Of a DNA stretch of 29,625 nt, positions 8,158 to 22,713 are shown piece by piece (the first letter of the stretch is position 1; each line of letters starts with the position of its first letter). The notes below the pieces were generated by a model. That model made no database searches, had not been told where the DNA came from, and saw only the letters and a list, made by a program, of their open reading frames with translations. The stretch spans positions 1 to 29,625 of the forward strand of contig NZ_SNUY01000056.1 of the NCBI RefSeq assembly GCF_004376175.1. The letters run 5' to 3'. A program made the translations under genes and the position numbers. Source of the stretch: Halalkalibacterium halodurans. GTDB taxonomy: Bacteria > Bacillota > Bacilli > Bacillales > Bacillaceae_D.

Positions 8158-8329
8158 CTACTCAATTACCAAACTATACCAGTTTGGACGTTAGGATGGA
8201 TTATCCCCTGTAAGAAATTTTAATTCGTTCTACTTCTATCCAGTAGTACTGGTGAGATTACTATTTGGTGTTAGTGAAATTTGGAGAATACATGAGTATT
8301 AGCGAGAAAATTAAACTTTATTGAGGGAG

Positions 8330-8881
8330 GTATTGGATCAAATCCCCTGCCTTCTTCCCCATGTGATCTTAATGGACATTCAAATGCCTATAATGAATGG
8401 GATTGAATGTTTAAAGGTAGTTAAGAGAATTTATCCCCACATTAACGTATTGATGTTAACAACGTTTGAAGATGATGATTACATTATTGAAAGTTTGGTC
8501 GGTGGAGCCAATGGTTTTTTGTTGAAAGATTTAAATTATGACCAACTGATCTATTCCATACGTCAATCGGTTGATGGACAGATGTTAATCCCTAACTCCA
8601 TTGCCGTTAAGCTAGCCAAACAGCTCTCTAAATATAATGAGCTGACTGAAGTGGATTTACAAATTGAAAAGTTAAAAAAAGAAGGGTTGCATTTTTCTGA
8701 ACGGGAACGACAAATTGCCTCCCTTTTAGCCCAAGGATTGACGAATAAAAAAATTGCCGAGAAACTTTATATTACGGAAGGTACTGTGAAAAATTACATA
8801 AGTGAAATTTATAGCAAGATCGGGATCCGTGATCGGATGCAAGCTTCCACCTATTTGCGAGATTTAGGAATCAATGACTAG
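8330..8881 (+). pseudogene. NarL/LuxR-family response regulator, C-terminal fragment
   Basis: Remainder of the receiver domain (PHVILMDIQMPIMNGIE..., LMLTTFEDDDYI) plus a LuxR-type HTH (ERERQIASLLAQGLTNKKIAEKLYITEGTVKNYISEIYSKIGIRDRMQA). Confidence 0.8.
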
Positions 8882-9034: not shown

Positions 9035-9084
9035 CAGAAAAACGCTTATCTAGTCTTTTAGAACACTAGATAAGCGTTTTTCTG
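9035..9084. terminator. Bidirectional rho-independent terminator
   Basis: Perfect 20-bp inverted repeat cagaaaaacgcttatctagt (9035-9054) / actagataagcgtttttctg (9065-9084), with an A-run on the 5' arm and a T-run on the 3' arm. Confidence 0.7.
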
Positions 9085-9291
9085 GCTAAAACTTATAAAA
9101 AAAGTTATGCATTTAATTGTATAGTTTCATCATTTTTACTCACTTTTTAGTTGAATATTATGGAAATAATAAGCAAGCTACCTAGAATTAATACGCCCTT
9201 AATGACCGTTCCCTCTTTAAATTACAACTTCCTCAATATGTTATATAAATTACCTTTGTTTTTATTAATTTGTACTTAGTATAGCAAGTTT

Positions 9292-9307
9292 GTTCTTTAT
9301 AAAGAAA
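9292..9307. promoter_or_regulatory. SinR-type operator (palindrome, 1 mismatch)
   Basis: gttctttataaagaaa. The left half, GTTCTTT, matches the SinR consensus GTTCTYT. It lies just upstream of the -35 box at 9315. Confidence 0.55.
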
Positions 9308-9314
9308 TGAAAAG

Positions 9315-9343
9315 TTGATAAACCTTCTCGCTTCCTTTATAAT
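9315..9343 (+). promoter_or_regulatory. Sigma-A promoter of the PilZ-like gene
   Basis: TTGATA (9315-9320), 17-nt spacer, TATAAT (9338-9343). Confidence 0.65.
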
Positions 9344-9359
9344 GTTCTTTATAAAGAAC
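9344..9359. promoter_or_regulatory. SinR-type operator (perfect 16-bp palindrome)
   Basis: GTTCTTTATAAAGAAC abuts the -10 box and so covers the expected transcription start. Its centre is 52 bp from the centre of the 9292-9307 site. Confidence 0.6.
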
Positions 9360-9383: not shown

Positions 9384-9779
9384 TTGAGGTCCATCCCCTG
9401 TTTAACCGAACCATTTTATGCTAAGTTAAAAATTATACAGGTTCATAGGCGACAGATCTCCTCTAAGGATTCGCTTGTTCAAGTTATTGAATTAGATATG
9501 AGAAAGCTTCGGTTTCGATCCGATTTAAAATTTCCTGTCTCTTCTAATGTTGTTTATGCTTTGTATGCCGAATTACTCGACTGTGAGTTTGAATTTGTTG
9601 GAACGATCGTTAAATCGATTTTCTTACAAAAACGAGCGGGCTTTGAATATCAACTGAACTACCTTGAAGGCGTACGTACAAAAAAGCCTTCAGCCGGTGC
9701 ACTGCTTTCTGCCATCGCCTTTCTCGAAGCACTAGGTCATGAAGAAGGCCAACTAAACGCAAAAGCCAACAATCTCTAA
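9384..9779 (+). CDS. Hypothetical protein, PilZ-like beta-barrel with degenerate c-di-GMP motifs
   Basis: TTG 9384 lies 6 nt after RBS aaggagagg. The longer track ORF starts inside the -35 box and is rejected. The pattern VQVIELDMRKLRFRSDLKFPVSSNVVYALYAELLDCEFEFVGTIVK...FEYQLNY follows the PilZ strand layout. However RxxxR is not intact (HRRQISS) and DxSxxG is replaced by DMRKLR. The functional call is tentative. Confidence 0.5.
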   Translation: MRSIPCLTEPFYAKLKIIQVHRRQISSKDSLVQVIELDMRKLRFRSDLKFPVSSNVVYALYAELLDCEFEFVGTIVKSIFLQKRAGFEYQLNYLEGVRTKKPSAGALLSAIAFLEALGHEEGQLNAKANNL

Positions 9780-9799
9780 CGTTCTGATTGTTGGCTTTT
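9761..9799. terminator. Bidirectional terminator spanning the overlapping stop codons of the PilZ-like gene and sinR
   Basis: 13-bp perfect arms aaaagccaacaat (9761-9773) / attgttggctttt (9787-9799). Both stop codons (taa 9777-9779 on plus, tag 9776-9778 on minus) sit in the loop. Confidence 0.7.
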
Positions 9800-10111
9800 C
9801 CATTTTTGGAATTCAAGATATTCCTTAAATTGGTCTTTGCTTATCCCTGATTCCATTGCTTCCTTGACTAGTTTCTTCCAATCTTCATCAAGCTCTTCTC
9901 TGCTAGTAGTGTCTTGTGTTGATTGTAATAAAGATTCGACAGAAACGTCCAGCACTTGGGAAATTTTTTCTAAGAAGTGAATGGATGGATTGGTTTGAAT
10001 GTTCCGCTCAATTGAACTAAGATACGATTTGGCCACTCCTGCCCGCTCTGCTAACTCGGAAAGAGAAAGCTCTTTTTCCAATCGGTACTTCTTTACACGT
10101 TCTCCAATCAT
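9776..10111 (-). CDS. sinR: SinR, master repressor of biofilm matrix genes (Xre-type HTH plus SinI/SinR oligomerisation helix)
   Basis: MIGERVKKYRLEKELSLSELAERAGVAKSYLSSIERNIQTNPSIHFLEKISQVLDVSVESLL ... KDQFKEYLEFQKWK is nearly collinear with B. subtilis SinR. Start taken at ATG 10111 (MIG...), as in B. subtilis. Confidence 0.9.
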   Translation of the reverse strand: MIGERVKKYRLEKELSLSELAERAGVAKSYLSSIERNIQTNPSIHFLEKISQVLDVSVESLLQSTQDTTSREELDEDWKKLVKEAMESGISKDQFKEYLEFQKWKSQQSER

Positions 10112-10152: not shown

Positions 10153-10182
10153 ATTATAACAACGAATTGAATGTTCTGTAAA
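10153..10182 (-). promoter_or_regulatory. Candidate internal sigma-A promoter for sinR, in the sinI-sinR spacer
   Basis: On the minus strand: TTTACA (10182-10177), 18-nt spacer, TGtTATAAT extended -10 (TATAAT = 10158-10153). Confidence 0.5.
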
Positions 10183-10188
10183 TAGAAC
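10173..10188. promoter_or_regulatory. Variant SinR-type operator GTTCT-N6-AGAAC overlapping the -35 box of the internal sinR promoter
   Basis: gttctgtaaatagaac has the same GTTCT/AGAAC arms and 6-nt spacing as the GTTCTTTATAAAGAAC sites, with a divergent centre. Confidence 0.4.
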
Positions 10189-10191
10189 CTA

Positions 10192-10323
10192 TTAGATGAT
10201 CTTGATTTTCTCTTTTTGTGAAACAGTTAAAAAGGAGCGGACTTCTTCAATAGTTAATCCTATTCTTTTTGCCTCCACGATTAATGCATACCATTCTTGA
10301 TCAAGAACTTTTTCTCCATTCAT
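10192..10323 (-). CDS. sinI: SinI, SinR antagonist
   Basis: 43-aa ORF absent from the supplied track: MNGEKVLDQEWYALIVEAKRIGLTIEEVRSFLTVSQKEKIKII, with RBS ggaggg 6 nt upstream. The core LDQEWxxLxVEAKxxxxxxEExRxxL matches B. subtilis SinI (LDQEWVELMVEAKEANISPEEIRKYL). It lies directly upstream of sinR. Confidence 0.8.
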   Translation of the reverse strand: MNGEKVLDQEWYALIVEAKRIGLTIEEVRSFLTVSQKEKIKII

Positions 10324-10513: not shown

Positions 10514-11098
10514 TTAGTATAGGGCCTCGGTCATCTCGGCTTGTACAATTAGGCGATGGGTCGGATCTTTCACAGGATCACACGTAATGAGCGTAAGTAC
10601 TGGAGCTGTTCCGTCATGTTGTAAAATGTCGATATTCGTAGGTTCAACAACTGTTATACTGTAAACCGTATATCGATACATGTGATTATTCGTTGTGACG
10701 GTAATGACATCCCCTACTTCGACTTCATCGAGCCGATTAAATTGCCTACCGTATGTTCGACTTCGGTGAGCGGCGATCGCTGCGTTCCCTTTTTCTCCGA
10801 TTGGTGATGACTCAATCATATGGCCGGCCCCAACTTTTAACGTCTCTTGATCAACACCTTGTAAGACTGGGAGCTTTAAAGAAATTTTCTCGATCTCTAA
10901 TACACCGATCGCATGTGGTTCTTCGCTAGAAAGGAGGTGTGGTTCTTCATTTGAAAAGGCTTCAAGCTCCCTATTTATTTTTTCATATGAATCAATCAAT
11001 CGGGTTTCGTAGAACGAATAATACTCGGTCTGTAATCTTGGAAAAAACATAAAAAGTAAGCCGAAACTAATGAACAAAACAGCTGTAATCGTTCTCAT
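10514..11098 (-). CDS. Sortase (membrane-anchored cysteine transpeptidase), probably dedicated to the adjacent LPQTG protein
   Basis: N-terminal TM segment. Catalytic His (NAAIAAHRS), TLITC cysteine motif and conserved Arg (THRLIVQAE). The start ATG overlaps the stop of the upstream gene (ATGA). Confidence 0.9.
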   Translation of the reverse strand: MRTITAVLFISFGLLFMFFPRLQTEYYSFYETRLIDSYEKINRELEAFSNEEPHLLSSEEPHAIGVLEIEKISLKLPVLQGVDQETLKVGAGHMIESSPIGEKGNAAIAAHRSRTYGRQFNRLDEVEVGDVITVTTNNHMYRYTVYSITVVEPTNIDILQHDGTAPVLTLITCDPVKDPTHRLIVQAEMTEALY

Positions 11099-11760
11099 GA
11101 TCCTCCTTCTAGCGACTCCTTACGATTTTTTCGGATGAGAAAGACGATACCGATTGAAAGAAGAAGAATCCCGATCAAATACATCCATGTCTGCACGGCT
11201 TCACCTGTTTGTGGTAATATCCCGCCCGGTCCACTCATCGAACCATCTGCTGGAAAATCAATTGGAGGCTGGAGCGTGCTTAACCGACCTTCCGAACGAA
11301 TCTGAAAGACAATGTCAGTCTGCAATCCTTGATATTCATTACCTGCCTCTTCTGGGAAAGTGACTGTAATAAATAACACATCGTCTTCACCTGAGGATAG
11401 AGCTCTTGAATCTAGCTTACGAAAATCTTTTAATTTTCCTGAGTGCAACGTCTGCCATTCATCTTTAATCGTTACATCCATGATGTTGTATAGCGCTTTC
11501 GAGCCTGAAACAAAAGAAGCTGACAAGACATAAGTACGATCATCCCCCTGGTTTACTATTATTAGTTCACGCGGAATCCAATCCCCTGGCTTTAAATGGT
11601 CCACGGAGAATAAAACATCTGCTGGGAACGTTTCAATATCGATCGTTGGCATCCGATCTGATGTAGCATATCCTGTCGTTGGAAATAAGAGCAACAAGAA
11701 GCTTATCATCAGTATCATTATCCTCAATATAATCACCACCCCACGAAAAAGAAAATCCAT
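11095..11760 (-). CDS. TasA/CalY-family (Peptidase_M73-like) protein with a C-terminal LPXTG cell-wall sorting signal
   Basis: It has the TasA-family hallmarks LKPGDWIPRELIIVNQGD and GNEYQGLQTDIVFQIRSE (compare LKPGD...NNG and NKYQG...F.F in TasA). The C-terminus is LPQTGEAVQTWMYLIGILLLSIGIVFLIRKNRKE, that is LPXTG plus a hydrophobic span plus a basic tail. The true start is probably internal (TTG 11727, ATG 11718 or ATG 11709), giving a signal peptide ending in TTGYA. Confidence 0.75.
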   Translation of the reverse strand: MDFLFRGVVIILRIMILMISFLLLLFPTTGYATSDRMPTIDIETFPADVLFSVDHLKPGDWIPRELIIVNQGDDRTYVLSASFVSGSKALYNIMDVTIKDEWQTLHSGKLKDFRKLDSRALSSGEDDVLFITVTFPEEAGNEYQGLQTDIVFQIRSEGRLSTLQPPIDFPADGSMSGPGGILPQTGEAVQTWMYLIGILLLSIGIVFLIRKNRKESLEGGS

Positions 11761-11861
11761 CCATTTTATGAGAGATTTCAGCGACTGTTGGTTTTAGCTT
11801 TACTTCTACTTACCTACCCTCAACGCGCTTCACTACTAAATTTTTGTATGAATCATCACGT

Positions 11862-11902
11862 TGAAGAAAAAGTCAAGGCAATGGACGTACATCACCTTGA
11901 CT
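11862..11902 (-). terminator. Probable partial terminator/attenuator after tasA
   Basis: On the minus strand, 8-bp stem agtcaagg / ccttgact (11902-11895 and 11878-11871) followed by ttttctt. Confidence 0.5.
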
Positions 11903-11923
11903 CCTATCGGGTTTTCGTTGTAT

Positions 11924-12556
11924 TTAACGCGCTTGACCTGGTTTTTGTGTTGCTTCAAGTTCATGAGTAACTTTAAGTGTCAAGCCTTGATATTTATTTT
12001 GAACGAATTCTCTTGAACCTTCTTTCCGTTCATCAGTCGGAACGAAAGTAATTTTCATTTTTAATCGATCGGTATGACCGACTGGTAAGTCTTTTTTACC
12101 TGATTCCCAGATTAGCCACCTGCGATAGTTATCCGCGATATTTCCAGATTGACTTTCGAGTTCAGCTAATGTTTTTCCAGAGATTTCTGGAATAATTTTT
12201 CCTTCATTGCTTAGGAAATCGACTCTTAATTGGGTAGCAAAGTCAGCTCCCTCATCAGAGGATTTTAATTTCTTACCATTTTTATACACTTCTGTTTGTG
12301 TGAACATAAGTACTTCATGAATATCAAGTGTTCCATTATTTGTAATTGTAAACTTGCGCGTCATGTGGTCTCCGGGCTTCAAATTATTTACATCAAAGAC
12401 GATTGTTGGATCAACACCTAGATCGATTGTACCGGCAGCAAAGGAACTCTCAATCGTTTCCACATCGTTAAACCACGCATACGTTCCTCCACCTAAAAGT
12501 GAAACCCCTACCGCTGCGGTAATAACCGCCATCCCTACTTTTCTTTTAATTGTCAT
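11924..12556 (-). CDS. tasA: TasA/CalY-family biofilm matrix fibre protein
   Basis: SipW-type signal and mature N-terminus VSLLGGGTYAWFNDVETIESSFAAGTIDL, then NLKPGDHMTRKFTITNNGTLDI and VQNKYQGLTLKVTHELEATQ. Collinear with B. subtilis TasA. RBS aaggagga. Confidence 0.9.
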   Translation of the reverse strand: MTIKRKVGMAVITAAVGVSLLGGGTYAWFNDVETIESSFAAGTIDLGVDPTIVFDVNNLKPGDHMTRKFTITNNGTLDIHEVLMFTQTEVYKNGKKLKSSDEGADFATQLRVDFLSNEGKIIPEISGKTLAELESQSGNIADNYRRWLIWESGKKDLPVGHTDRLKMKITFVPTDERKEGSREFVQNKYQGLTLKVTHELEATQKPGQAR

Positions 12557-12637
12557 AAAGAGTCCTCCTTAAATATTCCCCCAAATGTTAGGTTGAAGGG
12601 GTTTTTTATCTATGAAAACCGCCAAATGCGGATTTCA

Positions 12638-13207
12638 TCATGAGGTTTGATCCACTTGCTTTTGCTCCTGACGTTTTTCAAGCGTCCCAATCGCTCGCCA
12701 AAGCGTAATGATGGAATACAAGATAAGTAAAACCCCAGGAACAATCATTAAGAGTGCCGTTCCTTCTTTCGTCGTTGCAAATGTGAGAATGTATCCTAGG
12801 TACGGGACAGTAAATCCTGTGTATTCACCAACGACATTGGCTGCCAGTACAGGCTCAAGATCAGCCGCGTCATTGTTATCCCCTTTTGTTACATATTGAA
12901 CATGGTCTCCGTTTTGCAGCACCTCTACAATTCGGTGCGTGACAAGTGTATTGTCTTCTTTTAAAAAGGTAATGACATCTCCGGCCTGAAAACCAGTTCC
13001 ATTGCCTTCTACTTGTTTCACAGCTATAATCGAGCCTGTATGGAATGCAGGCTCCATTGAGCCGGAGAGAACCACATTTAATTGATGACCAAACACGGTT
13101 GGTTTTCCGCCAGAGGCATGAGAAATAATCGAGAGCATCGCGACGGAGATCATTAATAGAAAAAGAAGAAACGTCATTGATTTACTAATGATTTTCAGTA
13201 TCTTCAT
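12638..13207 (-). CDS. sipW: Signal peptidase I, SipW (ER/archaeal) type
   Basis: SGSMEP catalytic box, HRIV and GDNN motifs, plus a C-terminal TM segment. Start set at ATG 13207; GTG 13213 and TTG 13234 are alternatives. It overlaps the 3' end of the TapA-like gene by at least 23 nt. Confidence 0.88.
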   Translation of the reverse strand: MKILKIISKSMTFLLFLLMISVAMLSIISHASGGKPTVFGHQLNVVLSGSMEPAFHTGSIIAVKQVEGNGTGFQAGDVITFLKEDNTLVTHRIVEVLQNGDHVQYVTKGDNNDAADLEPVLAANVVGEYTGFTVPYLGYILTFATTKEGTALLMIVPGVLLILYSIITLWRAIGTLEKRQEQKQVDQTS

Positions 13208-13958
13208 CGGCACCTTGCTCCCCTCCAGTTTCAAGATGGTTCTGTTTCGTGCGGCCTTCTTGCTCCTCTATGTCAGAATGCTCCTTTTCTTCGTTTTTCG
13301 GCGAAGGAAAATCGCTAGACTCGTCTTCTTCCAGGGTTGTGTCTTCCTCAAATGTCTCTTTATCTTCCTCCATTGAGCTTCTTTCTGCTTCGTCTATCTT
13401 TTCTTCAGGCTGTTTACAATCTTTCAAAACAAATGCATCCCCATCTTGCCAAACTTCGCCTTCTTCAGGGTGCCCCTCTTCTTGATAGACTTTAAACTTA
13501 TAGCGACCTGGTTCTGTTGGTTCGTATGTCAATTCCAATGTTTCTCCTGCTTTGAGAGGATCAATGGTACCTTCATAAAGGATTGTTTCATCCGTAAACG
13601 TTGGCTTGCCTTTCAAGTTTGGATCAAAGTACACAACATATGTAATGCTTTTTTTCATGTCACCGTCGCCAGCATTTTTAATCGTTACTGATAGTTCTTC
13701 ACAAGAACCTTTTTGCTCCCCTTGTAGGAACGTGAGAGAACTACCCCTCCATTCTTCTTTTACGTCATCTTTTCCATCGTCCCACTCACCTGCGTTCGTC
13801 GAATGTTCAATGGTGACAACTGCATTGAAGGAAGCAGTCGTAGGCTGTGTGATGGAAGCGAGCGAAAAACATAACAAATAGATAAGAATAAATGTTTTTA
13901 CAAAAATAGAGAAAGCTACTTTCTTTTTTTGTCGAGCAGTTAAGCGATCTTTGCGCAA
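13185..13958 (-). CDS. TapA-like secreted protein (TasA-type signal, CARDB-like beta-sandwich, acidic tail)
   Basis: Start proposed at TTG 13958, with RBS gggggtga 7 nt upstream, giving MRKDRLTARQKKKVAFSIFVKTFILIYLLCFSLASITQPTTASFNAVVTIE. This resembles the TapA/TasA signal and the T.A.F.D.E junction. The middle part (IKNAGDGDM ... PLKAGETLELTY ... GRYKF) resembles a CARDB-type Ig-like domain. The C-terminal ~70 aa are very rich in D and E. The position, first in the sipW-tasA operon, matches tapA. Confidence 0.55.
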   Translation of the reverse strand: MRKDRLTARQKKKVAFSIFVKTFILIYLLCFSLASITQPTTASFNAVVTIEHSTNAGEWDDGKDDVKEEWRGSSLTFLQGEQKGSCEELSVTIKNAGDGDMKKSITYVVYFDPNLKGKPTFTDETILYEGTIDPLKAGETLELTYEPTEPGRYKFKVYQEEGHPEEGEVWQDGDAFVLKDCKQPEEKIDEAERSSMEEDKETFEEDTTLEEDESSDFPSPKNEEKEHSDIEEQEGRTKQNHLETGGEQGADEDTENH

Positions 13959-13987
13959 AACTCCATCACCCCCAGCAGCTTCGTTTT

Positions 13988-14003
13988 GTTCTTTATAAAG
14001 AAC
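13988..14003. promoter_or_regulatory. SinR-type operator (perfect 16-bp palindrome)
   Basis: GTTCTTTATAAAGAAC, 30 nt upstream of the proposed TapA-like start codon. Confidence 0.6.
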
Positions 14004-14048
14004 TAACACTGTCAGTATAGATCTATACATTAAGAAAAGAAACCTCTG

Positions 14049-14077
14049 TAAAGAACGATAAGGACGATATAACGAAC
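14049..14077. promoter_or_regulatory. Two additional SinR-type half-sites
   Basis: taaagaac (14049-14056, the reverse complement of GTTCTTTA) and aacgaac (14071-14077, the reverse complement of GTTCGTT). Confidence 0.35.
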
Positions 14078-14124
14078 ATTTTTCACACATTCTCTTTGAA
14101 TAACTCATGATTTCTCACGTTTTT

Positions 14125-14140
14125 GTTTTTTATAAAGAAC
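14125..14140. promoter_or_regulatory. SinR-type operator (palindrome, 1 mismatch)
   Basis: gttttttataaagaac has one mismatch to GTTCTTTATAAAGAAC. Its centre is 137 bp from the centre of the 13988-14003 site. Confidence 0.5.
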
Positions 14141-14261
14141 AAAAAATGACATGAATCAAGTTCCTTAATGGATTTAGTTATCCTTTCGGTTATGTTGTCG
14201 TTAAACAGATGACGACTAAGGTTCGTTCGAAAAAGCCCTCATCCTCTTACTATATAAAGTG

Positions 14262-14290
14262 AAAAAGCTCACCTTAACGGCGAGCTTTTT
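14262..14290. terminator. Bidirectional terminator separating the glc/permease unit from the matrix operon
   Basis: aaaaagctcacc / ggcgagcttttt stem (one mismatch), flanked by an A-run and a T-run. Confidence 0.6.
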
Positions 14291-14329
14291 CATTATTATA
14301 AAAGTAGGCATTCGTTAAAACATTATATT

Positions 14330-14560
14330 CTATTTAAAGAACGAATTAGTGTGGTTCACGTGAACGAAGGTAATCAATCCGTTGATCGATGCAGCCGTAG
14401 CTTGCTTGACAGGGACTTGCCAAATAAACAACGAAAGTCCTGCAGCCACAAGAAATGAAATTGGCATCGCTTTACTTGCAGGCATCCGCATCCCAACTAA
14501 TAAGACCCCCACAACAATAATGGGTAACAACGACATAAAGGCTAACCAGCCGGTGGTCAA
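14330..14560 (-). pseudogene. L-lactate/glycolate permease (LctP/GlcA family), N-terminal ~64 codons only
   Basis: TTG start with RBS ggggagagg. LSLLPIIVVGVLLVGMRMPASKAMPISFLVAAGLSLFIWQVPVKQATAASINGL matches the first two TM helices of LctP-family permeases, which are about 550 aa. The frame then ends after 12 unrelated codons. Confidence 0.6.
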
Positions 14561-14749: not shown

Positions 14750-16936
14750 TTACACGAGTTCTTTTGCGATTTTTTGTTTAAACTCTAGGCGCCGACGATG
14801 CAAGATCGGTTCTGTATAACCACTCGGCTGTTCTGTCCCTTTTAACACGAGCTCTAATGCTGCTTGGAAGGCGACAGACTGCTCAAGATTATCAGCCATT
14901 GGACGGTAAGCGGGATCCCCGGCATTTTGTTCATCCACTACTTTTGCCATGCGTTCCATCGTTCGAATCACTTGCTCCTTACTTACGATGCCGTGACGAA
15001 GCCAATTGGCCATATGTTGACTCGAAATGCGCAAAGTGGCGCGATCTTCCATTAATGCTGTGTTATGAATATCAGGCACCTTAGAGCAGCCGATCCCTTG
15101 TTCCACCCAACGCACGACATAACCGAGAATCCCTTGGGCATTATTATCAAGCTCTGCTTGAATGTCCTCATTCGTCCAGTCGGTAGAGCCAGCTAGAGGG
15201 ATTTCAAGAATCTCCTTGCGATAGCACGTTTGATCATCTGCAAGTGTCTTTTGAATGGCAGGTACATGGTGGCGATGATAATGAATGGCGTGAAGCGTCG
15301 CTGCTGTTGGCGATGGCACCCATGCTGTATTTGCTCCAGCTTCAAGTTGACTTCCTTTCTGTTCCATCATCTCGTTCATATGATCCGGCATTGCCCACAT
15401 TCCTTTTCCGATTTGAGCTCGGCCTCGGAAACCACAAGTTAGGCCCGTGGCTACATTGGATCGCTCATAGGCTGAGAGCCAGCTAGACGACTTCATATCC
15501 CCTTTGCGAATCATCGGGCCCGCTTCCATCGATGTATGAATCTCATCCCCAGTTCGATCCAAAAATCCCGTATTGATAAAGACGACCCGTTCCTTTACTT
15601 TCTCAATGCATGCTTTTAAATTTAGGGACGTGCGCCGCTCTTCATCCATGACGCCGATTTTCAACGTATGACGTTCCAAACCGAGAATGTCTTCAATTCG
15701 ATTAAACAATCGATTGGCAAAAGCCACTTCCTCCGAACCATGCATTTTTGGCTTTACGATGTAAACCGATCCTTTTTTTGAGTTTCGGAATGTGCCATTT
15801 TGCAACAAATCATGCTTAGCAATTAGGCTCGTAACGATTCCATCTAGAATGCCTTCTGGCACTTCCTCGCCTGATTGCGTTCGAATAACAGGCGTGGTCA
15901 TTAAGTGTCCAACATTCCGGATAAACATGAGCGAACGCCCTGGTAGCGAGAACGTTTCTCCATTTGGTGCCGTGTAGCTTCGATCCTCGTTTAACTTTCG
16001 CTTTTTTGTTTTTCCTTCTTTCGTAAACGTTGCTTCAAGTGTTCCTTTCATAAGACCAAGCCAGTTTTGATAGACAGCTACTTTGTCTTCAGCATCAACA
16101 GCTGCGACGGAATCTTCACAATCCATAATTGTGGTTAGCGCGGACTCAAGGACAATGTCCTTCACCTTTGCCCGATCACTTTTTCCAATTGGGTGTCTTG
16201 CATCGATTTGAATTTCTACGTGAAGTCCATGATGAAGAAGAAGAATGACAGATGGGTCTCCTTGTGAACCTTGGTAACCGACAAACTGTGTCTCGTCCTT
16301 TAATCGTGTCATCTTTCCAGATTCAAGTGTAACGACTAGTTGCTTATCCATGATGGCATAGTTGATAGCCTCATGATGAGAGCCGCTTGTAAGCGGGAAC
16401 GTATGATCTAAGAAGTCTTTGGCAAACTGAATAACTTTGGCTCCTCGTTTCGGGTTGTATGTCCCCGTTTTTTCGCATCCGTCCTCTTCTGAAATGACAT
16501 TCGATCCGTAAAGGGCATCATACAAACTTCCCCAGCGAGCATTCGCTGCATTAATCGCATATCGTGCATTGTTGACTGGAACCACTAGCTGTGGTCCTGC
16601 TTGCGCCGCGATTTCATCATCCACATTTTCCGTTGTAATGGTTACATGTTCAGGGATTGGCTCTAAATAGCCGATTTCTTCTAAAAACGAGTGATATGCT
16701 GAAAAATCAATGGGTCCTTTGTTTTTTTGATGCCACGCATCGATCGTTGCTTGAATTTCTTCACGTTTAGCGAGAAGCATCTTGTTTTCTGGCATCAATT
16801 CAGTGATGATTTGCTGGACACCAGACCAAAAATCGTCCTTCTTAATCCCCGTTCCAGGAAGAGCCCTCTGCTCAATAAATGTTATTAGTTTGGTCGCCAC
16901 CTGCAAATTTCCCACATGTTCGTATGTTTCCATCAT
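14750..16936 (-). CDS. glcB: Malate synthase G
   Basis: 728 aa, the length expected for malate synthase G and collinear with it by eye over the whole ORF. RBS aaaggaggag; the second ATG (16933) is the better-spaced start. Confidence 0.93.
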
Positions 16937-16946
16937 AACTCCTCCT

Positions 16947-18392
16947 TTATTTATTTAATGATTGTTTGATCTCAACACAACGGCTAGGGGAAGGGAAAAG
17001 CTTCCCGCCGTTTAGGAGATTGCGCGGATTAAACACTTGGCGTATTTCGAGTTGGGCATTGATTTCCTCTTCTGTAAAGACGAAGCGCATCTCTTCTTTC
17101 TTTTCAATTCCGATCCCATGCTCACCTGTGATGGTTCCACCAACGGCTGCACACGCCCGGAGACATTCACTCCCTGCTTGTAGCGCTCGTTCGGTCTCTC
17201 CTTCTACCGTCGCATCAAACAGAACAAGGGGGTGAAGGTTACCATCACCGGCGTGAAAAATATTTGCGATTCGTAGCCCGTATGTTTCGCTGATTTTTTG
17301 AATCGTTGAAAGCACGACCGGAAGCTTTGTCCGCGGGATCACTCCATCTTGTACGAGGTAATCAGGTGAGATGGCACCCATGGCACCAAAGCCTGTTTTT
17401 CGGTTCGCCCACCATTTCATCCGTTCTTCTTCAGATGTAGCTACTTTCACCTCGCGAACATGATGCTTTCGGCAAACGGTTAAAATACGTTCAATTTGTT
17501 GATCCATTCCGGCAGAAATGCCGTCCACTTCGATTAGCAAAACCGCTTCCGCATCAAGTAGGTGCCCGATAGGGAAAGCGGCGGCCTCCACGCCTTCCAT
17601 CGCTATGCGATCCATCATTTCAAGCGCTGCTGGGACAATCCCTTCTGAAATGATGTCAGACACCGTGTGACTTGCATCGCTCACTTTGTCAAAGTAAGCT
17701 AAAACCGTCTGTTTCGCCTCTGGATGTTTCAAAATGCGAACGGTAATTTTTGTAACAATTCCAAGTGTTCCTTCTGATCCCGTCATCAGTCCAAGCAAAT
17801 CATACCCAGGTTCATCCAATATTCCAGCTTTTCCGATTTCCACAATGTCCCCATTCGGGAGTACCACTTCCATTCCTAAGATATGGTTCGTGGTAACTCC
17901 GTATTTAAGACAGTGGGCGCCGCCAGCATTTTCTGCCACATTACCACCGATCGTGCAGCAATATTGGCTGGATGGATCTGGCGCATAGTAATACCCTTTG
18001 TCCTCAATGAATTGAGTAAGCTTTATATTGACATAACCAGGTTCAACGATCGCGCGGCGGTTTTTCAGATCGACTTCAAGTAAGCGCTTCATCCGTACGA
18101 GGCTAATAATGACCTCCCCATTGATCGGGATCGCCCCACCACTTAGTCCTGTTCCGGCTCCTCTGGCGAGAAAGGGAAGGTTATGATCGTGACAGTAACG
18201 GACAATGCTTGCCACTTCCTTTGTATTTTCCGGAAACACAACCGCCTTTGGCAAATGTTTATGAATCGTAAACCCATCGCAATCATAGGCTAGCAAATCT
18301 TCTTTCTTATATAGAACCGGATTGTGTCCGCTTAACAGCTCGTGAAAAGATCGGATGTGAGGATCTTCATGCTCGCGCTTCCTTCCAATCAT
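16947..18392 (-). CDS. glcD: Glycolate oxidase subunit GlcD (FAD-linked oxidase)
   Basis: FAD-binding PCMH domain ([14 protein letters not shown]) plus an FAD-oxidase C-terminal domain. ATGA overlap with the upstream glcF. Confidence 0.9.
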
Positions 18393-19744
18393 AGTCCATC
18401 CCCTCCTTCCGTCTTCAACTCTTCCTGCTGGTAAGCCAAGTCAAGCAATTGAACCGTATGAATGATTCTCTGATTATCTCCGTATTTTTTGACGCCCATA
18501 GCCATTTGCAGCATACAGCCAGGGTTCCCCATAGACACCATCTCTACATCACTTGGGACGCACTCCATTTTTTTCTCTAGTACTCTACTAGCCATCTCCG
18601 GATGCGTAAGATTATAAATGCCGGCACTGCCACAGCACCGATCAGCGTTCTCCATCGGAATTAACTCAACGCCAGGAATTTTCAGCAATAAGTCTCGTGG
18701 CTCCTGACGCACGTTTTGTCCGTGTGCGAAGTGACAGGCGTCATGGTAGGCAACTTTTGCACGGACTTCCCCTTTTGGCTTCTCATAGCCTGTATCATAC
18801 AAGTGCTTGGAAACATCCTTCACCTTCTCGGCAAATGCTTCCGCCCGTTCATACCATTCCCGATCGACTTCGCGAAACAATTCAGGATATTCTTGGAGCA
18901 TGGAACCACAGCCTGCTGCATTGACAATAATCGTCTCTTCGTTTTCAAAAGCTTTCATGTTCTGCTTTGCAAGTCTTCTTCCCATCTCTCGATCACCTGC
19001 ATGAACATGCAGAGCCCCGCAGCACGTCTGATCTTTTGGGAGCGAAACGTCGTTTCCGTTTCGCGTTAACACGCGTATCGTCGCTTCATTTACTTCACTG
19101 AACATGACATCCATCACACAACCTGCCAATAACGCAACTCTCTGCTTGGACTGCCCCTTAGCTTTTATGAACGATTTCTTGCGATAACGCTTCTGAACAG
19201 GCGTTGATACTTCAGGTATGACGGCCTCCATGTCTGCGAAATGCTCAGGAAAAAGGTGAAGCAATCCTGTTTTTCGCACTGCTTTTCGTATACCTACCTT
19301 TTGATACACTTTCACCAATGAACCGAGAGCGTGTAGACGATGAGGGTAAGGGAAAAGCCCACGGAGAAATAAATGGCTTACAACCTTTTTCCACCCAGAT
19401 AACGGAAGAGCTTGGCGGATTTGTCCTCTGGCTTCTTCAATTAAGCCACCAACCTCTACATCTGCAGGACAAGCTGTTTCACAGGCACGGCAGTCAAGGC
19501 ACGTAAACACCGGATCGGCAAATGCTTCATTCACTTCGAGCTTTCCTTCTGCTACCGACTTGATTAAATGAACGCGCCCCCTCGGCGATTGCTGTTCATG
19601 GCCAGTCAGCTCGTATGTAGGACAGGCCTCTAAACACATGCCGCAATGGACACAGTCCGCCCACTTGTTTGGATCGGGGTGATCGGACCAGTGATAGTTA
19701 GTCAATGATGGAGGCGAACAAGGTAGCTGCTTTGTGCTACTCAT
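18389..19744 (-). CDS. glcF: Glycolate oxidase iron-sulfur subunit GlcF
   Basis: Two CxxCxxCxxxCP ferredoxin motifs (CVHCGMCLEACP, CLDCRACETACP) followed by two CCG-type cysteine-rich domains. Confidence 0.9.
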   Translation of the reverse strand: MSSTKQLPCSPPSLTNYHWSDHPDPNKWADCVHCGMCLEACPTYELTGHEQQSPRGRVHLIKSVAEGKLEVNEAFADPVFTCLDCRACETACPADVEVGGLIEEARGQIRQALPLSGWKKVVSHLFLRGLFPYPHRLHALGSLVKVYQKVGIRKAVRKTGLLHLFPEHFADMEAVIPEVSTPVQKRYRKKSFIKAKGQSKQRVALLAGCVMDVMFSEVNEATIRVLTRNGNDVSLPKDQTCCGALHVHAGDREMGRRLAKQNMKAFENEETIIVNAAGCGSMLQEYPELFREVDREWYERAEAFAEKVKDVSKHLYDTGYEKPKGEVRAKVAYHDACHFAHGQNVRQEPRDLLLKIPGVELIPMENADRCCGSAGIYNLTHPEMASRVLEKKMECVPSDVEMVSMGNPGCMLQMAMGVKKYGDNQRIIHTVQLLDLAYQQEELKTEGGDGL

Positions 19745-19746
19745 GA

Positions 19747-21072
19747 TTAAATCCCCCCTACAAAGCGAGTTTGATTGAGTATTCGCTGTGGATCGATAGC
19801 CTGTTTAATCCCTTGTAACAGTTCCATGTAAGCAGGTGGTTCTCCCCATACATCGACAGTTTGTCGAATCGTAAGAGGAGCATGTGTGAGAACGAGATGT
19901 CCAGAGGCACCTGCAATAACTTGACGCAAATCCGCGATCGCTAGACAAATGTCTTGTTCGTCTCCTGTTAAGATGATCACACCGAGACCATGCCCCACAC
20001 CGCCATGAAAAGAGGTAGAAACATGATATTGGACTGTTAATCGCTTACATTCTTGCAGCACCGAAAAAAGATCGAAATTTTTGACTGCTACTTTGAGCTT
20101 AACTGCTGTCTGTTGGTTGGATTGATCCAATGTTTGAATTGACTCCCTTTTTCGCCATTGATCCCAGAATCTATTGGCATCTTCTCGCTGAAAGATGGCA
20201 GCGTTCGTTCCCTTTGGCAATTGTGATAAGACGTATTGTTCTTGATAGTGAACCGAGGACGGTATATCTTCAAAGCTAATCAGAAGGCCTAACGCCACCT
20301 CCCCTGTGACTGCTTCCGTCCATGTCGAATTCATGATTTCAAGTGCAACCGGCTCCATATAGGAATCAAGTAAACTGGCGACAACATCTTCGATCAGTGT
20401 CAGTTGGTTTTCGTTGAAAAAGGCAATGATTACTCGCTCATCCTTTGGAAGCGGGCGTAGCTTTAAGGTCACCTCTGTCATGACGCCCAATGTTCCCATC
20501 GAACCAATAAACAACTTATTCATATCGTAGCCAGCCACATTTTTGACAACTTTTCCACCAGTACGAATGATGCGACCATCAGGATAGACGACCCGTAAGC
20601 CGATGACATGATCCCTAGCTGCTCCATGACGGAGGCGTTTAGGTCCGCTTTCATTTGTGGCAATCATGCCCCCAATCGTTGCAGCTTCATCACAGGGCAT
20701 GTCGAATGGGAGCGCCTGCTTAAAAATGGCAAGCTCTTTTTGAAGTTTTCGTAGAGGCGTTCCAGCTTTCACAGTCACCGTCATGTCTCCTATCGAGTGG
20801 TCTACGATGCCTGTAAACTGTTGAAGTGATACGACCCATTCCGTTTCTAATAATGTCCCAGCAAACCCCCGTTTCGTTCCAGCTCCTTCAACTGTTACAA
20901 GATGCTCCTCTTCACTTGCAAGTGTCAGAACATCGGCTAGCTCTCGCTCCGTTGTTGGGACAACTTCTAGTAAACCTGTATTTCCATAGGGATCGTTCAT
21001 TCGGTCACGTTGTACAACTTGGCTATTATTTAATTGTTTGACAAGTTTGGCGTGCGCATTAGAGACGATCAT
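19747..21072 (-). CDS. glcE: Glycolate oxidase FAD-binding subunit, GlcE-like
   Basis: PCMH-type FAD-binding domain (VEGAGTKRGF, GGMIATNESGPKRLRHGAARDHVIGLRVV, NVAGYDMNKLFIGSMGTLG). It is the first gene of the glcE-F-D-B row. At 441 aa it is longer than typical GlcE (~350 aa). Confidence 0.75.
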   Translation of the reverse strand: MIVSNAHAKLVKQLNNSQVVQRDRMNDPYGNTGLLEVVPTTERELADVLTLASEEEHLVTVEGAGTKRGFAGTLLETEWVVSLQQFTGIVDHSIGDMTVTVKAGTPLRKLQKELAIFKQALPFDMPCDEAATIGGMIATNESGPKRLRHGAARDHVIGLRVVYPDGRIIRTGGKVVKNVAGYDMNKLFIGSMGTLGVMTEVTLKLRPLPKDERVIIAFFNENQLTLIEDVVASLLDSYMEPVALEIMNSTWTEAVTGEVALGLLISFEDIPSSVHYQEQYVLSQLPKGTNAAIFQREDANRFWDQWRKRESIQTLDQSNQQTAVKLKVAVKNFDLFSVLQECKRLTVQYHVSTSFHGGVGHGLGVIILTGDEQDICLAIADLRQVIAGASGHLVLTHAPLTIRQTVDVWGEPPAYMELLQGIKQAIDPQRILNQTRFVGGI

Positions 21073-22682: not shown

Positions 22683-22713
22683 GAAAAAACGAGGGCGGTT
22701 ATGATTCGCCCTC
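22683..22713 (-). terminator. Rho-independent terminator overlapping the end of parC
   Basis: On the minus strand: gagggcg-aatcataac-cgccctc followed by gtttttt. The parC stop codon lies in the loop. Confidence 0.7.

Follow-up and report, generated by a model that had tools for sequence, protein, structure and literature searches.

In Bacillus subtilis, the operators of the biofilm master repressor SinR (at epsA-O, tapA-sipW-tasA and kinB; structure 3zkc) are built from half-sites with the experimentally derived consensus GTTCTYT (PMC3163267, PMC5733473), which was obtained from footprints at eps, yqxM(tapA) and aprE (PMC3163267). More than two motifs per promoter are the rule, the affinity of SinR for an inverted pair is about 10-fold above that for a tandem pair or a single site, and the SinR N-terminal domain superimposes on 434 Cro (PMC3163267). 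The SinR-1 site of kinB is a 7-2-7 inverted pair (PMC5733473), and the inverted repeat of the eps promoter (PepsA) reads GTTCTCTAAAGAGAAC (PMC12010548). On structural grounds, a SinR tetramer has been proposed to bridge two sites by looping, and the consensus of SlrR is related to that of SinR but altered (PMC3163267). Here we analyse a family of 16-bp palindromes, GTTCTTTATAAAGAAC, in a 29,625-nucleotide stretch of DNA from Halalkalibacterium halodurans (assembly GCF_004376175.1, contig NZ_SNUY01000056.1, positions 1 to 29,625), hereafter the window. Sequence comparison indicates that these palindromes are very probably the operators of the SinR encoded at 9776-10111. An earlier note on this DNA had proposed them as the SinR operators of this organism, and the proposal is right in substance, supported by the match to the consensus, by a SinR with an identical recognition helix encoded together with SinI, by the positions of the sites at promoters and by their conservation across species. 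In the literature searched, we found no description of SinR operators in H. halodurans.

A search of the window for the palindrome with up to three mismatches returned eight matches, four of them with at most one mismatch, against 0.29 expected (mean of 100 dinucleotide-preserving shuffles; maximum 2). The 16-mer is an inverted pair of GTTCTYT half-sites in the same 7-2-7 arrangement as the eps operator, with T at the Y position; both the half-site given in the earlier note and its inverted geometry agree with the published sites (PMC3163267, PMC5733473, PMC12010548). The search recovered the two exact copies (9344 and 13988), the two one-mismatch copies (9292 and 14125) and the GTTCT-N6-AGAAC variant (10173) that had been listed before. 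The two half-sites reported near tapA also exist; the first, a perfect one, starts at 14050 and not at 14049, and the second carries one mismatch (Table 1). These five named copies lie outside probable coding sequences, provided that tapA begins at TTG 13958. The claim that all copies are non-coding does not extend to two previously unlisted three-mismatch copies, one within sinI, whose status is uncertain and which may be due to chance, and one at 20238-20253, which also means that the right-hand 15 kb is free of the closer copies only. A further three-mismatch copy, at 14327-14342, could represent either a third, weak operator or a chance match. We further note that ten of the eighteen perfect GTTCTYT half-sites in the window fall within the control regions of orf131 and tapA (9292-9359 and 13988-14342), and that the remaining eight are scattered; our own composition-only estimate for the whole window is about nine.

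The repressor encoded between these sites aligns over residues 2-111 with B. subtilis SinR and consists of an HTH_3 helix-turn-helix (HTH) domain and a C-terminal SinI domain, with 434 repressor among its sequence matches. The stretch that contains the recognition helix, VAKSYLSSIERN, is identical in the two SinR proteins. The window protein is identical to proteins named from Halalkalibacterium halodurans, is the sole HTH protein with a SinI domain at the locus, and is encoded together with its antagonist SinI. The two species thus share the recognition helix, the half-site, the 7-2-7 inverted geometry, the presence of several sites per promoter, the tapA-sipW-tasA matrix operon as a target, and a SinI antagonist encoded just upstream of sinR. 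They differ in that the H. halodurans 16-mer has T at the Y position in both halves and an AT centre, which makes it fully symmetric, and this symmetric form recurs exactly at two promoters of the window and in many other Bacillales. The H. halodurans matrix operon also carries extra LPXTG and sortase genes, and sinI-sinR is co-directional with it and lies downstream of it, whereas we take B. subtilis sinI-sinR to be convergent with the tapA-sipW-tasA operon. Phage 434 Cro and cI are likewise dimers of a five-helix Xre/Cro-type domain that read a short palindrome overlapping promoter elements; SinR differs from them in being chromosomal and a tetramer, in being governed through protein antagonists instead of cleavage, and in having operators spread across several operons.

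Judged by its predicted operators, the best-controlled SinR target appears to be orf131, a previously undescribed small PilZ-like gene adjoining sinR. Its proximal operator directly abuts the -10 element of the predicted, strong promoter and therefore covers the expected transcription start, and its distal operator lies just upstream of the -35 element, with the operator centres 52 bp, or 4.95 helical turns, apart. The TTG start codon at 9384 is preceded by a ribosome-binding site, AGGAGAGG, 6 nt upstream. Each 16-bp site would be occupied by one SinR dimer, whose Cro/434-type HTH domains would read the two inverted GTTCTTT half-sites 2 bp apart. Since SinR is a tetramer, two operators at whole-turn spacing can be held by one tetramer, which would span them with the intervening DNA looped (52 bp at orf131, 137 bp at tapA). 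With operators over the transcription start and upstream of the -35 element, bound SinR should therefore exclude RNA polymerase from the orf131 promoter, and the identity of the perfect copies may imply very tight repression, as the earlier note had suggested. Once SinI is made, SinR would be drawn into an inactive heterodimer and the promoters would be freed. For H. halodurans we infer SinR binding, looping, autoregulation and the SinI switch; what the analysis shows is the sequences, where they lie with respect to predicted promoter elements, how they are conserved among species, and a recognition helix identical to that of B. subtilis SinR.

Two hairpins adjoin orf131. The first spans the point where the stop codons of orf131 and sinR overlap and is probably a bidirectional terminator; relatives likewise have a hairpin in the gap between a convergent PilZ-like gene and sinR. 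Antisense interference across sinR by the SinR-repressed orf131 promoter was considered and rejected, because this strong hairpin (9761-9800) intervenes and a similar one is found in relatives. The second is a perfect long hairpin, AAAAACGCTTATCTAGT-N10-ACTAGATAAGCGTTTTT (9035-9085, about -29 kcal/mol), which separates a response-regulator gene from orf131. It, too, probably terminates transcription in both directions, and its 10-nt loop explains why the consensus terminator scan did not report it.

At the matrix operon, SinR would act through an operator in the leader 29 nt before the tapA start codon, a half-site at the likely -35 element and a second operator 137 bp upstream. Sites cover both the tapA leader and the DNA upstream of it, and no eps operon lies within the window. 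The promoter scan found no consensus tapA promoter. The perfect half-site overlaps a possible -35 element, TTTACA (14052-14047, minus strand), and the corresponding promoter, TTTACA-17-TGTATA, is a weak candidate of our own reading that is absent from the scan output. The placement of the leader operator is tied to the start of tapA, which the earlier note had put at TTG 13958, inside a longer open reading frame (ORF) of 307 residues (13185-14108). This start is upheld by three observations: the match to the TapA model TIGR04087 starts at residue 52 of the long ORF; a signal peptide of SipW type, at residues 76-109, has a normal position only with the TTG start; and a Shine-Dalgarno sequence, GGGGGTGAT, precedes the TTG. 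Gene callers in other strains give TapA proteins of 307, 281 or 274 residues, all of which overrun the operator. The evidence thus supports TTG 13958 and indicates that these calls begin 17 to 50 codons too early, on the far side of the operator. A word-index search returned no TapA homologues outside H. halodurans, and the cross-species footprint at tapA rests on other genera with the exact 16-mer (L044, L093, L121).

The LPXTG protein of the matrix operon (10514-11760 with its dedicated sortase, minus strand) shows faint similarity to camelysin, a hint that a TasA-like matrix component is covalently anchored to the wall. In Ectobacillus antri (L093), an LPXTG homologue also follows tasA.

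A third placement concerns sinR itself. The -35 element of the predicted sinR-proximal promoter falls inside the operator variant GTTCTGTAAATAGAAC (10173-10188), a weaker site whose position over this element suggests negative autoregulation of sinR. Such autoregulation would differ from B. subtilis, where sinR is described as constitutively transcribed (PMC10134886).

These placements recur in relatives, five other species of which show a matching -35/-10 layout with operators at its flanks. We compared the loci of five of the remote homologues of orf131 from the alkaliphile clade, namely those of Halalkalibacter akibai (L131), Alkalihalobacterium bogoriense (L133), Alkalihalobacillus sp. MEB130 (L135) and two more (L134, L136), and in all five a PilZ-like gene is convergent with sinR-sinI. 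An operator directly follows the -10 element of the PilZ-like gene promoter in six of six species, including the window (-10 TATAAT; TAAGAT in L136). In the clade loci this operator has the form GTTCTT-N5-AGAAC in five of five, one base off in L131. Four of these species (L131, L133, L134, L135) have a second operator as well, 53-63 bp away on the upstream side. At 52, 53, 61 and 63 bp for the PilZ-like gene and 137 bp for tapA, the spacings of the operator pairs are near-integral numbers of helical turns. The intergenic DNA around the operators is not alignable by eye, and the window, L131, L133, L134 and L135 share all 16 bases of GTTCTGTAAATAGAAC, which lies about 50-55 bp ahead of the sinR start. 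When 24 sites are pooled, the half-site reads G-T-T-C-T-(T>G,A,C)-T, and variation is greatest at position 6, the Y of GTTCTYT.

Four of the five clade loci carry, directly after the PilZ-like gene, a gene for an HTH-only protein of 71-87 residues. This protein lacks a SinI-type domain and has a recognition helix, VSKSYISYIERG, that closely resembles those of SinR and, we presume, SlrR. The window contains no such gene, as a tblastn search with the relatives' protein matches sinR alone.

The orf131 protein gave no family match in Pfam or NCBIfam, including PF07238 (PilZ). A full HMMER search returned 11 remote homologues at 24-41% identity, of which only three (P0006, P0011, P0012) pass the PF07238 cutoff. 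An AlphaFold (AF2) model from the single sequence was unusable (predicted local distance difference test score, pLDDT, 35.7); the model that we used, built from a ten-sequence alignment (pLDDT 84.9), predicts a six-stranded barrel with a C-terminal helix. Its top 23 fold matches in the PDB are nearly all PilZ domains (BcsA, B. subtilis MotI, MrkH, Alg44, YcgR), with moderate scores (E from 1.4e-3, template modelling (TM) score 0.4-0.57). The predicted likeness extends to B. subtilis MotI (DgrA/YpfA; 5vx6), from which orf131 differs in having no Pfam match and in lacking the cyclic di-GMP (c-di-GMP) motifs RxxxR and D/NxSxxG, the fold match itself being moderate (TM about 0.5, E about 1e-3). 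In the alignment these motifs are missing from the orf131 protein, which reads ELDMRKL where P0006 reads DIGGGGL, and from most of the family, and c-di-GMP binding is therefore doubtful. We found no PilZ protein linked to sinIR in the literature searched, and a role of orf131 in the motility/matrix switch is a lead only.

A comparison can be made with B. subtilis slrR, of the SinR/SlrR double-negative loop, which is likewise a regulatory-type gene under SinR operators and linked to the switch; in the relatives, the predicted SinR-controlled operon beside sinR includes an SlrR-like HTH gene. The H. halodurans target differs in encoding a PilZ-fold protein alone, with neither an HTH nor a SinI-like domain, and any feedback of orf131 on SinR would be conjectural. 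We tentatively raise the possibility, which we hold to be less probable than its opposite, that the alkaliphile clade (Halalkalibacterium, Halalkalibacter, Alkalihalobacterium and relatives) has two features that the textbook circuit of B. subtilis lacks. These would be SinR autorepression through a base-for-base conserved 16-bp operator and, as the most tightly operated target, a degenerate PilZ-fold protein in place of a matrix gene. The PilZ-fold gene, convergent with sinR and in most relatives co-transcribed with that of the SlrR-like HTH-only protein, would then form an undescribed output or feedback arm. If so, the PilZ-fold protein might be a c-di-GMP-independent motility brake (MotI- or EpsE-like) or a SinR-modulating partner.

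The exact 16-mer is also widespread beyond this clade. A search of a genome collection found it in at least 120 stretches, and the following figures hold among the matches listed. Bacillales (Bacillaceae, Paenibacillaceae and allied families) account for 65 of 120, and the sites outside ORFs (of at least 90 codons) number 66 of 71 in Bacillales and 30 of 55 elsewhere (Fisher p = 5e-7). A SinR homologue is encoded within 8 kb in 12 loci, TasA, SipW or TapA in five, and extra near-perfect copies occur about 60-95 or 140 bp from the exact 16-mer. The 60 ORFs that start within 400 bp downstream of the Bacillales sites include the Wzz chain-length determinant (EpsA-like; 12), Polysacc_synt_2 (EpsC-like; 11), TasA (2), HTH proteins (3, two of them with a SinI domain) and subtilases (2). 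By these family assignments, the genes behind the 16-mer in Bacillales are in outline the B. subtilis SinR regulon. The symmetric 16-mer marks eps, tasA and sinR promoters and is usable as a SinR-regulon probe in Bacillaceae and Paenibacillaceae.

The 16-mer also occurs in Alphaproteobacteria, in L011, L045, L049 and L080 (Litorimonas, Algimonas, Caulobacterales) and in L069, L099 and L125 (Microvirga). It is intergenic in six of these seven loci, which suggests use by an unrelated regulator.

Several points weigh against taking the palindromes as operators of SinR. In ten same-species loci with an identical SinR, none of the seven sites in the sin-tapA region, 14327-14342 included, is altered, and we discarded this invariance as a test of constraint, since loci that are about 99% identical overall are silent on it. 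The conservation of the 10173 site could in part reflect its role as the -35 element of the sinR promoter. At tapA, the lack of a recognisable consensus promoter makes the position of the operators relative to the transcription start uncertain. H. halodurans is not among the matches listed, and its own regulon (e.g. an eps operon) is unseen there. Finally, a close SinR paralogue with a similar helix, such as the HTH-only protein of the relatives, could share the sites.

This last point bears on a rival explanation that we consider improbable, namely that the sites are bound by another member of the Xre family, for instance a SinR paralogue of SlrR type encoded elsewhere in the genome, instead of by SinR homotetramers; it might act alone or heteromerically with SinR. 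This explanation draws on the HTH-only protein encoded beside the PilZ-like gene in relatives, with its SinR-like helix, and on the related but altered consensus of SlrR (PMC3163267). Against it, the pooled half-site matrix equals the SinR consensus, no HTH protein at the locus other than SinR has a SinI domain, and the tblastn search places no SlrR-like gene in the window. Far less probable is that the sites are chance AT-rich sequence or generic promoter DNA (UP-element or -35-like) with no dedicated binding protein. The motif is indeed AT-rich, the 10173 copy holds the -35 hexamer TTTACA, and some clade relatives have TTTACTATAAAGAAC at -35. Yet chance would have to account for the excess over shuffled sequence, for two exact 16-mers at unrelated promoters, for site positions conserved across six species and for the exact 16-mer before eps, tasA and sinR genes in many genera (among the matches listed). 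Equally slight is the probability of an RNA or DNA-structure role as terminators, attenuators or repetitive extragenic elements: the palindromes are perfect inverted repeats and the 13988 copy is probably in the tapA leader, but an RNA-hairpin role was rejected on the weak best fold (a 7-bp A/U-rich stem with a 4-nt loop, just -5.5 kcal/mol), no T-run follows, copies lie both upstream and downstream of promoters, and transcription in this region has its real terminators in other hairpins, richer in G+C.

Operators of SinR remain the reading that we favour. They are an expected, ordinary feature of such a locus and leave the known principle of SinR action unchanged. What they add is a reading, from sequence, of how the biofilm matrix is controlled in an alkaliphile of industrial use, with a corrected tapA start, the pan-Bacillales use of the exact 16-mer, and the sinR autoregulation site and the PilZ-fold target as leads for the clade. 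The features of the window and of the clade loci are collected in Table 1.

Table 1. Sites, predicted promoter elements and genes of the sinR-tapA region and of the related clade loci (mismatches are counted against the palindrome unless stated).
Feature	Locus	Position	Strand	Sequence or motif	Remarks
orf131 distal operator	window	9292-9307		GTTCTTTATAAAGAAA	1 mismatch; ends 7 bp upstream of -35
orf131 predicted sigma-A promoter	window	9315-9343	+	TTGATA-17 nt-TATAAT	11/12 positions; consensus scan
orf131 proximal operator	window	9344-9359		GTTCTTTATAAAGAAC	0 mismatches; perfect palindrome; first base directly after -10
orf131	window	9384-9779	+		131 residues; TTG start; convergent with sinR; predicted PilZ-like fold
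Hairpin over overlapping orf131/sinR stop codons	window	9761-9800			A and T runs at flanks; about -26 kcal/mol for 9740-9820
sinR	window	9776-10111	-		111 residues; ATG at 10111; E 4.7e-42 to B. subtilis SinR (PDB 1b0n/3zkc)
Predicted sinR-proximal promoter	window	10153-10182	-	TTTACA-18 nt-TATAAT	TG before -10; consensus scan
Candidate sinR operator	window	10173-10188		GTTCTGTAAATAGAAC	3 mismatches; GTTCT-N6-AGAAC variant; each half-site off at position 6 only
sinI	window	10192-10323	-		43 residues as called in other strains (longest ORF to 10353); PF08671, E 6e-14; NF046031
Weak copy	window	10293-10308		ATTCTTGATCAAGAAC	3 mismatches; within sinI
Matrix operon tapA-sipW-tasA-LPXTG-sortase	window	10514-13958	-		minus-strand order continues with sinI, sinR
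Sortase	window	10514-11098	-		
LPXTG protein	window	11095-11760	-		
tasA/camelysin-family gene	window	11924-12556	-		
sipW	window	12638-13234	-		longest ORF; NF046067, above cutoff
tapA	window	13185-13958	-		TIGR04087, E 3e-60
tapA proximal operator	window	13988-14003		GTTCTTTATAAAGAAC	0 mismatches; perfect palindrome; 29 nt upstream of TTG 13958, just before Shine-Dalgarno
Half-site	window	14050-14056	-	GTTCTTT	perfect; AAAGAAC on plus strand; half-site search
Half-site	window	14071-14077	-	GTTCGTT	degenerate, 1 mismatch to GTTCTYT; AACGAAC on plus strand
tapA distal operator	window	14125-14140		GTTTTTTATAAAGAAC	1 mismatch; 137 bp from proximal = 13.05 helical turns
Weak copy	window	14327-14342		ATTCTATTTAAAGAAC	3 mismatches; 3' end of lactate-permease remnant, upstream of terminator 14260-14292
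Weak copy	window	20238-20253		GTTCTTGATAGTGAAC	3 mismatches; within a coding ORF
PilZ-like gene	L131	5001-5384			
PilZ-like gene	L133	4001-4381			
PilZ-like gene	L134	4001-4375			
PilZ-like gene	L135	4001-4381			
PilZ-like gene	L136	4001-4306			
HTH-only gene	L131	5381-5596			
HTH-only gene	L133	4350-4613			
HTH-only gene	L134	4393-4611			
HTH-only gene	L135	4384-4599			

The DNA around these features has been rearranged in several places. Two IS110-family transposase genes are present (23-1306 and 6472-7812), and comparison with other strains shows that the insertion with the second of them (about 6410-8325) interrupts a LuxR-type response-regulator gene adjacent to orf131; the C-terminal part of this gene lies at 8326-8881, and L001 has it intact (223 residues). 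About 3.4 kb is missing at position 4931 relative to other strains, a region that encodes a GH10 xylanase, a GyrI-like protein and a LuxR-type regulator (L001 13261-16647). On the other side of the tapA control region, the lactate permease is a 76-residue remnant (14330-14560, minus strand) left by a deletion of about 1.56 kb with its junction at 14370/14371. Some other strains (e.g. L001, L005) have an intact permease of 595 residues, and in the rest it is shortened or split; the adjoining tapA control region is unchanged. The right-hand 15 kb, which the earlier note had called housekeeping DNA, deserves that name in part: on the minus strand, 14750-21072 and 22699-27137 encode malate synthase G, glycolate-oxidase-type FAD/Fe-S subunits and an IclR regulator, followed by the A and B subunits of topoisomerase IV or gyrase.

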